Below are positions 31,243 to 31,772 of a DNA stretch of 64,000 nt, in pieces. The position numbers and the translations under genes were made by a program. The first letter of the stretch is position 1. Each line of letters opens with the position of its first letter. Below the pieces are notes generated by a model. It had not been told where the DNA came from. It made no database searches and was given only the letters and a program-made list of their open reading frames with translations. Source of the DNA: Escherichia coli (GTDB lineage: Bacteria > Pseudomonadota > Gammaproteobacteria > Enterobacterales > Enterobacteriaceae); assembly GCF_024298765.1 (NCBI RefSeq), contig NZ_CP101210.1; one strand, written 5' to 3'.

Positions 31243-31772
31243 TTAATCGCCTGGATAAATGGTAATAACTTCACCGTCATAAGTTGCCGCCGCTGCGAAA
31301 ATATCCCCCGGAATTTCCTGAATGATATTCAGCCCTGTCATGTGGCGGCTGACCGGGCGGGCATCAGCAATCAACCGCTCCATTTCCAGATACATTTCCT
31401 CCGTCACGCCACTGTCCAGCGTGCCGACTTCAACGGTAAATGTCCCGGTTCTCCGCCGAACTCCCACCACTCAGACACGCGAATGAGGTATCCCAGCGGC
31501 TCAATGGCCCGGCGCAGTGCGCTGATGGTCCCTTTGTGTCGGTGTATCAGCCATGCATCACGAATAACCTGTCGCTTTGTCTCTTCCGGCCAGTTGCGAT
31601 CCCAGCGGTCAACGGAAAATGCCCAGGCGAGATAAGGCAGCAGATGCACCGGGCAGGTATCCGGTGACCACAGCGTGTTGAGGTCTACCGGGATGTTTGT
31701 AATGCGCGCTCCGACAGCTTCGGCGCAACGCATGAAATTGCTGGCTGATGGTGGTAACAGCGAATTACTCAT
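31243..31772 (-). pseudogene. Baseplate protein gpI (P2 I homologue), apparent 1-nt frameshift
   Basis: Split into ORFs 31404-31805 and 31243-31470; combined span is 530 nt, one short of an in-frame ~176-codon gene; frames switch near 31430-31436. Confidence 0.5.

Follow-up and report, generated by a model that had tools for sequence, protein, structure and literature searches.

A probably genuine, very recent one-base deletion in the baseplate wedge gene gpI of a P88-like Escherichia coli prophage

The window analysed here, a stretch of 64,000 nt from Escherichia coli, carries a whole prophage of 37.5 kb (15993..53528) that is P88-like (Xuanwuvirus, Peduoviridae) and belongs to the P2 family. 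It is bounded by attL and attR, perfect direct repeats of 124 bp at 15993-16116 and 53405-53528, the first of which overlaps the 3' part of a tRNA-Leu(taa) gene (15961-16047) lying downstream of tRNA-Gly and tRNA-Cys. Within the P2-type tail operon, the locus for the baseplate wedge protein gpI (tail protein I of P2) occupies 31243..31772 on the minus strand, between gpJ and the tail-fibre gene H. The neighbouring gpJ (31765..32661, minus strand) is intact and encodes a T4 gp6-like baseplate wedge protein with Baseplate_J_N, Baseplate_J_M and Baseplate_J_C domains; its stop and the gpI start overlap by 8 nt. H, also intact (29138..31240, minus strand), follows directly downstream of gpI. The same arrangement, with gpI between gpJ and H and an overlap of the gpJ stop with the start of gpI, is found in P2 and in Escherichia phage P88, where the protein is recorded as 'tail protein' (AIZ95146.1). 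Other morphogenetic genes of the prophage matched intact counterparts where compared. An invertible tail-fibre segment spans approximately 27007-30112, and a resolvase/invertase-type recombinase is encoded at 26369-26956 (minus strand). The orientation of this segment varies among copies of the prophage, the H product being 700 aa in the window and in contig SKEW01000494.1, and 721 aa in JAXKKK010000001.1 and JAZJEQ010000009.1.

The gpI locus is read as two overlapping ORFs on the minus strand. ORF A (31404..31772) starts with the ATG at 31772, ends with the TGA stop at 31404-31406 and encodes 122 aa, made up of the 110 native N-terminal residues followed by 12 out-of-frame residues (HLPLKSARWTVA). 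ORF B (31243..31470) overlaps ORF A, and the stranded C-terminal coding part, which specifies native residues 111-176 (TFTVEVG...IYPGD), lies in this other frame at 31243..31442. Together the two ORFs extend over 530 nt, 1 nt below the closest intact orthologue, annotated as 'phage tail protein I' in E. coli O111:H8 strain 8E (WP_001470141.1), whose 531 nt encode 176 aa and a stop. The original prediction had described two such ORFs falling one nucleotide short of a gene of about 176 codons, and both the ORF listing and the 531-nt orthologues agree with it.

Alignment to the closest relatives placed the missing base. At 31446..31438 on the minus strand the window reads GGGACATTT (plus strand AAATGT-CCC) where relatives read GGGAACATTT, and a three-way alignment of the window, strain 8E and phage P88 showed one gap and otherwise no difference in 123 columns. 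The deletion (31443..31444, minus strand) takes one A from an AA dinucleotide, changing GGGAACA to GGGACA (plus strand TGTTCCC to TGTCCC), and falls at codons 110/111, so that the frame breaks after codon 110. With one A put back, the frames join as ...WWEFGGEPG-TFTVEVGTLDSG..., and the reconstructed protein is identical to WP_001470141.1 at all 176 residues, which bears out the earlier proposal that gpI is split by one deleted A. The nine-base motif named in that proposal does lie inside 31400-31475, but its position had been given as 31428-31436, which is wrong by 10; it occupies 31438-31446. A functional gpI would be an uninterrupted ORF of about 176 codons, which the window copy, at 530 rather than 531 nt, does not contain. 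In contrast to gpI of P2 and P88, it is one base short and cannot encode the 176-aa protein, residues 1-110 alone remaining in frame. Judged from its sequence, gpI in the window is a pseudogene of the Tail_P2_I family.

The reconstructed protein scored 173.2 bits in a profile search against Pfam PF09684 (Tail_P2_I; curated cut-off 20.6 bits), with a domain at residues 6-141 that crosses the break. ORF A by itself scored 144.9 bits over profile positions 1-109 of 139, and the stranded C-terminal part 19.3 bits over positions 103-139. By tblastn, the reconstructed gpI was 98.9% identical to that of P88 and approximately 62% identical to Peduovirus (P2-like) copies. Its residues 1-174 also aligned with PA0619 from pyocin R2 (PDB 6U5B, 6U5K; E = 4.2e-41), a full-length homologue beside which the window product is truncated, and an ERL..D.RPVSRH block in the C-terminal 66 residues is common to both proteins. 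The Tail_P2_I match, the gpJ and H neighbours and the homology to PA0619 together support the earlier identification of the gene as gpI. The comparison with gpI of P2 and related prophages that had been proposed at the same time returned one continuous protein, with no natural stop at the end of the first ORF.

We found the deleted allele to be rare. A 71-nt probe over the site detected 794 copies in 719 complete E. coli genomes; there was no exact match, and all best matches were at 98.6%, equal to one gap, so that the deleted allele was present in 0 of the 794 copies. With a one-gap match at all 794 E. coli sites, the two-ORF arrangement is not a chance one. Among IMG/VR contigs, the intact 32-mer was present in 62 and the deleted 31-mer in none, and the deleted form was also absent from the JGI metagenomes searched. 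Very close copies of the prophage are public. Contig SKEW01000494.1 (37,543 nt) corresponds to window positions 15990..53531 (37,542 nt) and shows 100% identity across the 33 kb compared, bar this base, while over 21 kb JAXKKK010000001.1 differs from the window only by this base, by one synonymous SNP (22601) and by the orientation of the invertible segment. Relative to copies of the same prophage there is one indel and there are zero substitutions, suggesting that the lesion is very young. The deletion is also present in JAZJEQ010000009.1, a 168-kb contig of assembly GCA_036612595.1 that shows 0 mismatches over 5.1 kb and in which no gpI gene was called. Its tail-fibre segment is inverted relative to that of the window (H of 721 aa, versus 700 aa), indicating that it is not the window's own assembly.

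We consider it likely that gpI of this P88-like, P2-family prophage became a pseudogene through the loss of 1 bp (AA to A), a deletion that is genuine and very recent. A sequencing or assembly artefact, with the true DNA reading GGGAACA and gpI intact, is in our view unlikely. A one-base loss within a short run would fit an artefact, but a run of 2 nt is unlike the typical long-read homopolymer error, and the label 'homopolymer-type' given to the deletion by the original prediction does not suit an AA dinucleotide. An artefact would also fit the otherwise identical prophage copies without the deletion, the absence of the allele from the 719 complete genomes, IMG/VR and the JGI metagenomes, and an exact-product look-up in which neither fragment's product (122 aa, 75 aa) was on record as a called protein. 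A random sequencing error is unlikely, however, given that another assembly, whose inversion state differs, has the same deletion. The contig in question, which extends across the 124-bp att repeats, has the appearance of a short-read draft, and single-base deletions in dinucleotides are presumably rare in such drafts. The shared deletion would be weaker support if both assemblies came from the same isolate, or if one read set had been assembled twice.

The surroundings of the deletion also argue against an artefact. Where at least three close relatives could be compared, approximately 47 kb in all, the window has only two private single-base indels, at 31443 and 49859, and the second of these is inherited, which leaves the gpI deletion without a companion. 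The chromosomal flanks (16 kb and 11.6 kb, 27.6 kb in all) gave a 100.0% match to several complete genomes with no gaps. An artefact would be expected in one assembly only and beside other private indels nearby, a pattern that the gpI deletion does not show. The caution about sequencing error raised in the original prediction is therefore weakened by the allele in JAZJEQ010000009.1, by the gapless flanks, by the inherited allele at 49859 and by a normal A8 tract at 19284. That caution had cited three homopolymer-type frameshifts as raising the possibility of error, a set that we could not reproduce as such evidence: the indel at 49859 is inherited, the tract at 19284 is a normal allele and the E/E' site is natural.

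At 49859 (A7 to A6), an early-region gene at 49831-49959 on the minus strand, which encodes 92 aa in strain 8E (WP_000158977.1), is cut to 42 aa. The exact 42-aa product occurs on at least 22 public contigs (NCBI, ENA, Logan), indicating that this frameshift is an inherited allele of the prophage lineage rather than a sequencing error. The tract ending at 19284 lies in a 487-aa ORF of unassigned function (17897-19360, plus strand) located between gpD and ogr, which had no Pfam or PADLOC match. Its A8 in the window is the common 487-aa allele, strain 8E has A7 and 465 aa, and relatives have 465-, 479-, 487- and 489-aa versions. Gene E (22509-22874, plus strand) carries the canonical P2 E/E' programmed -1 heptamer, T TTT TTG, at 22820-22826, a natural site that could pass for a homopolymer error. 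In strain 8E (NZ_CP077465.1, L001 31508-32361), the closest RefSeq relative, the annotation gives gpD as a shortened protein of 266 aa beside a partial pseudogene, whereas gpD of the window is intact (19491-20600, 369 aa); related copies thus bear their own, different lesions.

Recoding at gpI, in which a -1 ribosome slip at G GGA (tRNA-Gly moving from GGA to GGG) would keep some tail function, is very improbable. If the ribosome slipped by -1 on CC-GGG-A, the sequence would read ...EPG-TFTV..., which is exact wild-type gpI with no substitution. However, the site reads CCGGGACAT and has no X XXY YYZ heptamer, no downstream stimulatory structure was found (fold z-score -0.59), and slippage would be at background level at most. 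Nor is the two-ORF layout conserved, since every relative has a single uninterrupted ORF and the layout was seen in 0 of 794 E. coli copies, 0 of 62 IMG/VR contigs and one other assembly. Like the gpI locus, the P2 E/E' programmed -1 frameshift involves a tail gene of this prophage with two ORFs that overlap. Unlike E/E', the gpI break lacks the heptamer, the structure and the conservation, and we rejected programmed frameshifting in favour of a mutation. Independent expression of the stranded C-terminal part was likewise rejected, as no promoter-like site was found near it and no Shine-Dalgarno motif was seen by eye ahead of the GTG at 31470.

A natural two-gene layout, in which the first ORF would be all of gpI and the second a small gene of its own, is hardly credible and was rejected, because although some distant Burkholderia phage homologues match residues 2-121 only, all close relatives have a single 176-aa protein, the reconstructed protein is matched in one piece, over at least 80% of its length, by 403 phage records (tblastn), and both the PA0619 alignment and the Pfam domain run across the break.

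We return to the reading that we favour, a genuine deletion in gpI, and its likely consequence. The baseplate proteins of P2 are gpV, gpW, gpJ and gpI, with gpI a component of the wedge (PMC4604203), and the counterparts of P2 gpI are T4 gp7, Mu Mup48 and TssG of the T6SS (PMC6300606). In pyocin R2, (PA0618)2-PA0619 corresponds to the (gp6)2-gp7 wedge module (PMC10457771). PA0619, gp7, Mup48 or TssG, each with two gp6-, gpJ- or TssF-like copies, makes up one baseplate wedge (PMC10457771, PMC6300606, PMC4604203). Like gp7 in (gp6)2-gp7 of T4 and PA0619 in (PA0618)2-PA0619 of pyocin R2, gpI would be the single-copy partner of two gpJ chains per wedge. The predicted product of the window copy would retain residues 1-110 and lose the conserved C-terminal 66 residues. 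Because each wedge needs one gpI and two gpJ, wedges, and hence tails, should not form. The prophage is very probably tail-defective and unable to build tails, a loss of function that we infer from the truncation of a conserved domain. The 110-residue fragment might retain some assembly activity, and the defect could be complemented by another P2-like prophage at a different place in the genome; up to three copies occur in some E. coli genomes.

Genes for excision, replication, head assembly and lysis appear intact, and an activated prophage could still excise, replicate, package DNA and lyse the cell. Infectious particles would not be expected unless gpI came from another P2-like prophage that shares the cell. 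It is improbable that selection has fixed the deletion in a clonal E. coli sub-lineage as a 'taming' mutation, with cargo and immunity kept and no infectious particles made, or that background slippage at G GGA keeps the phage weakly viable. Rather, the gpI deletion is an ordinary, recent case of prophage decay in a well-known phage gene, a kind of feature that is already known. It offers a clean example of a young lesion, with one base lost and, measured against other public copies of this prophage, zero substitutions.

In annotation, gpI is best labelled a frameshifted pseudogene and the prophage scored as 'intact-looking but probably tail-defective'. This status affects predictions of infectious phage production, of a helper role for P4-like satellites and of the spread of cargo genes. 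A cargo of three genes (459, 114 and 269 aa) lies at 42979-45506 on the plus strand, in a variable spot between the replication gene A and the portal gene Q. None of the cargo ORFs had a PADLOC or Pfam match, and they may form an undescribed defence or accessory module. In other P2-like prophages, the same spot holds ParM/StbB, an AAA+ protein with an S8 peptidase, or DUF3800. The 114-aa cargo protein is widespread, being indexed in 1580 blocks of the collection searched.
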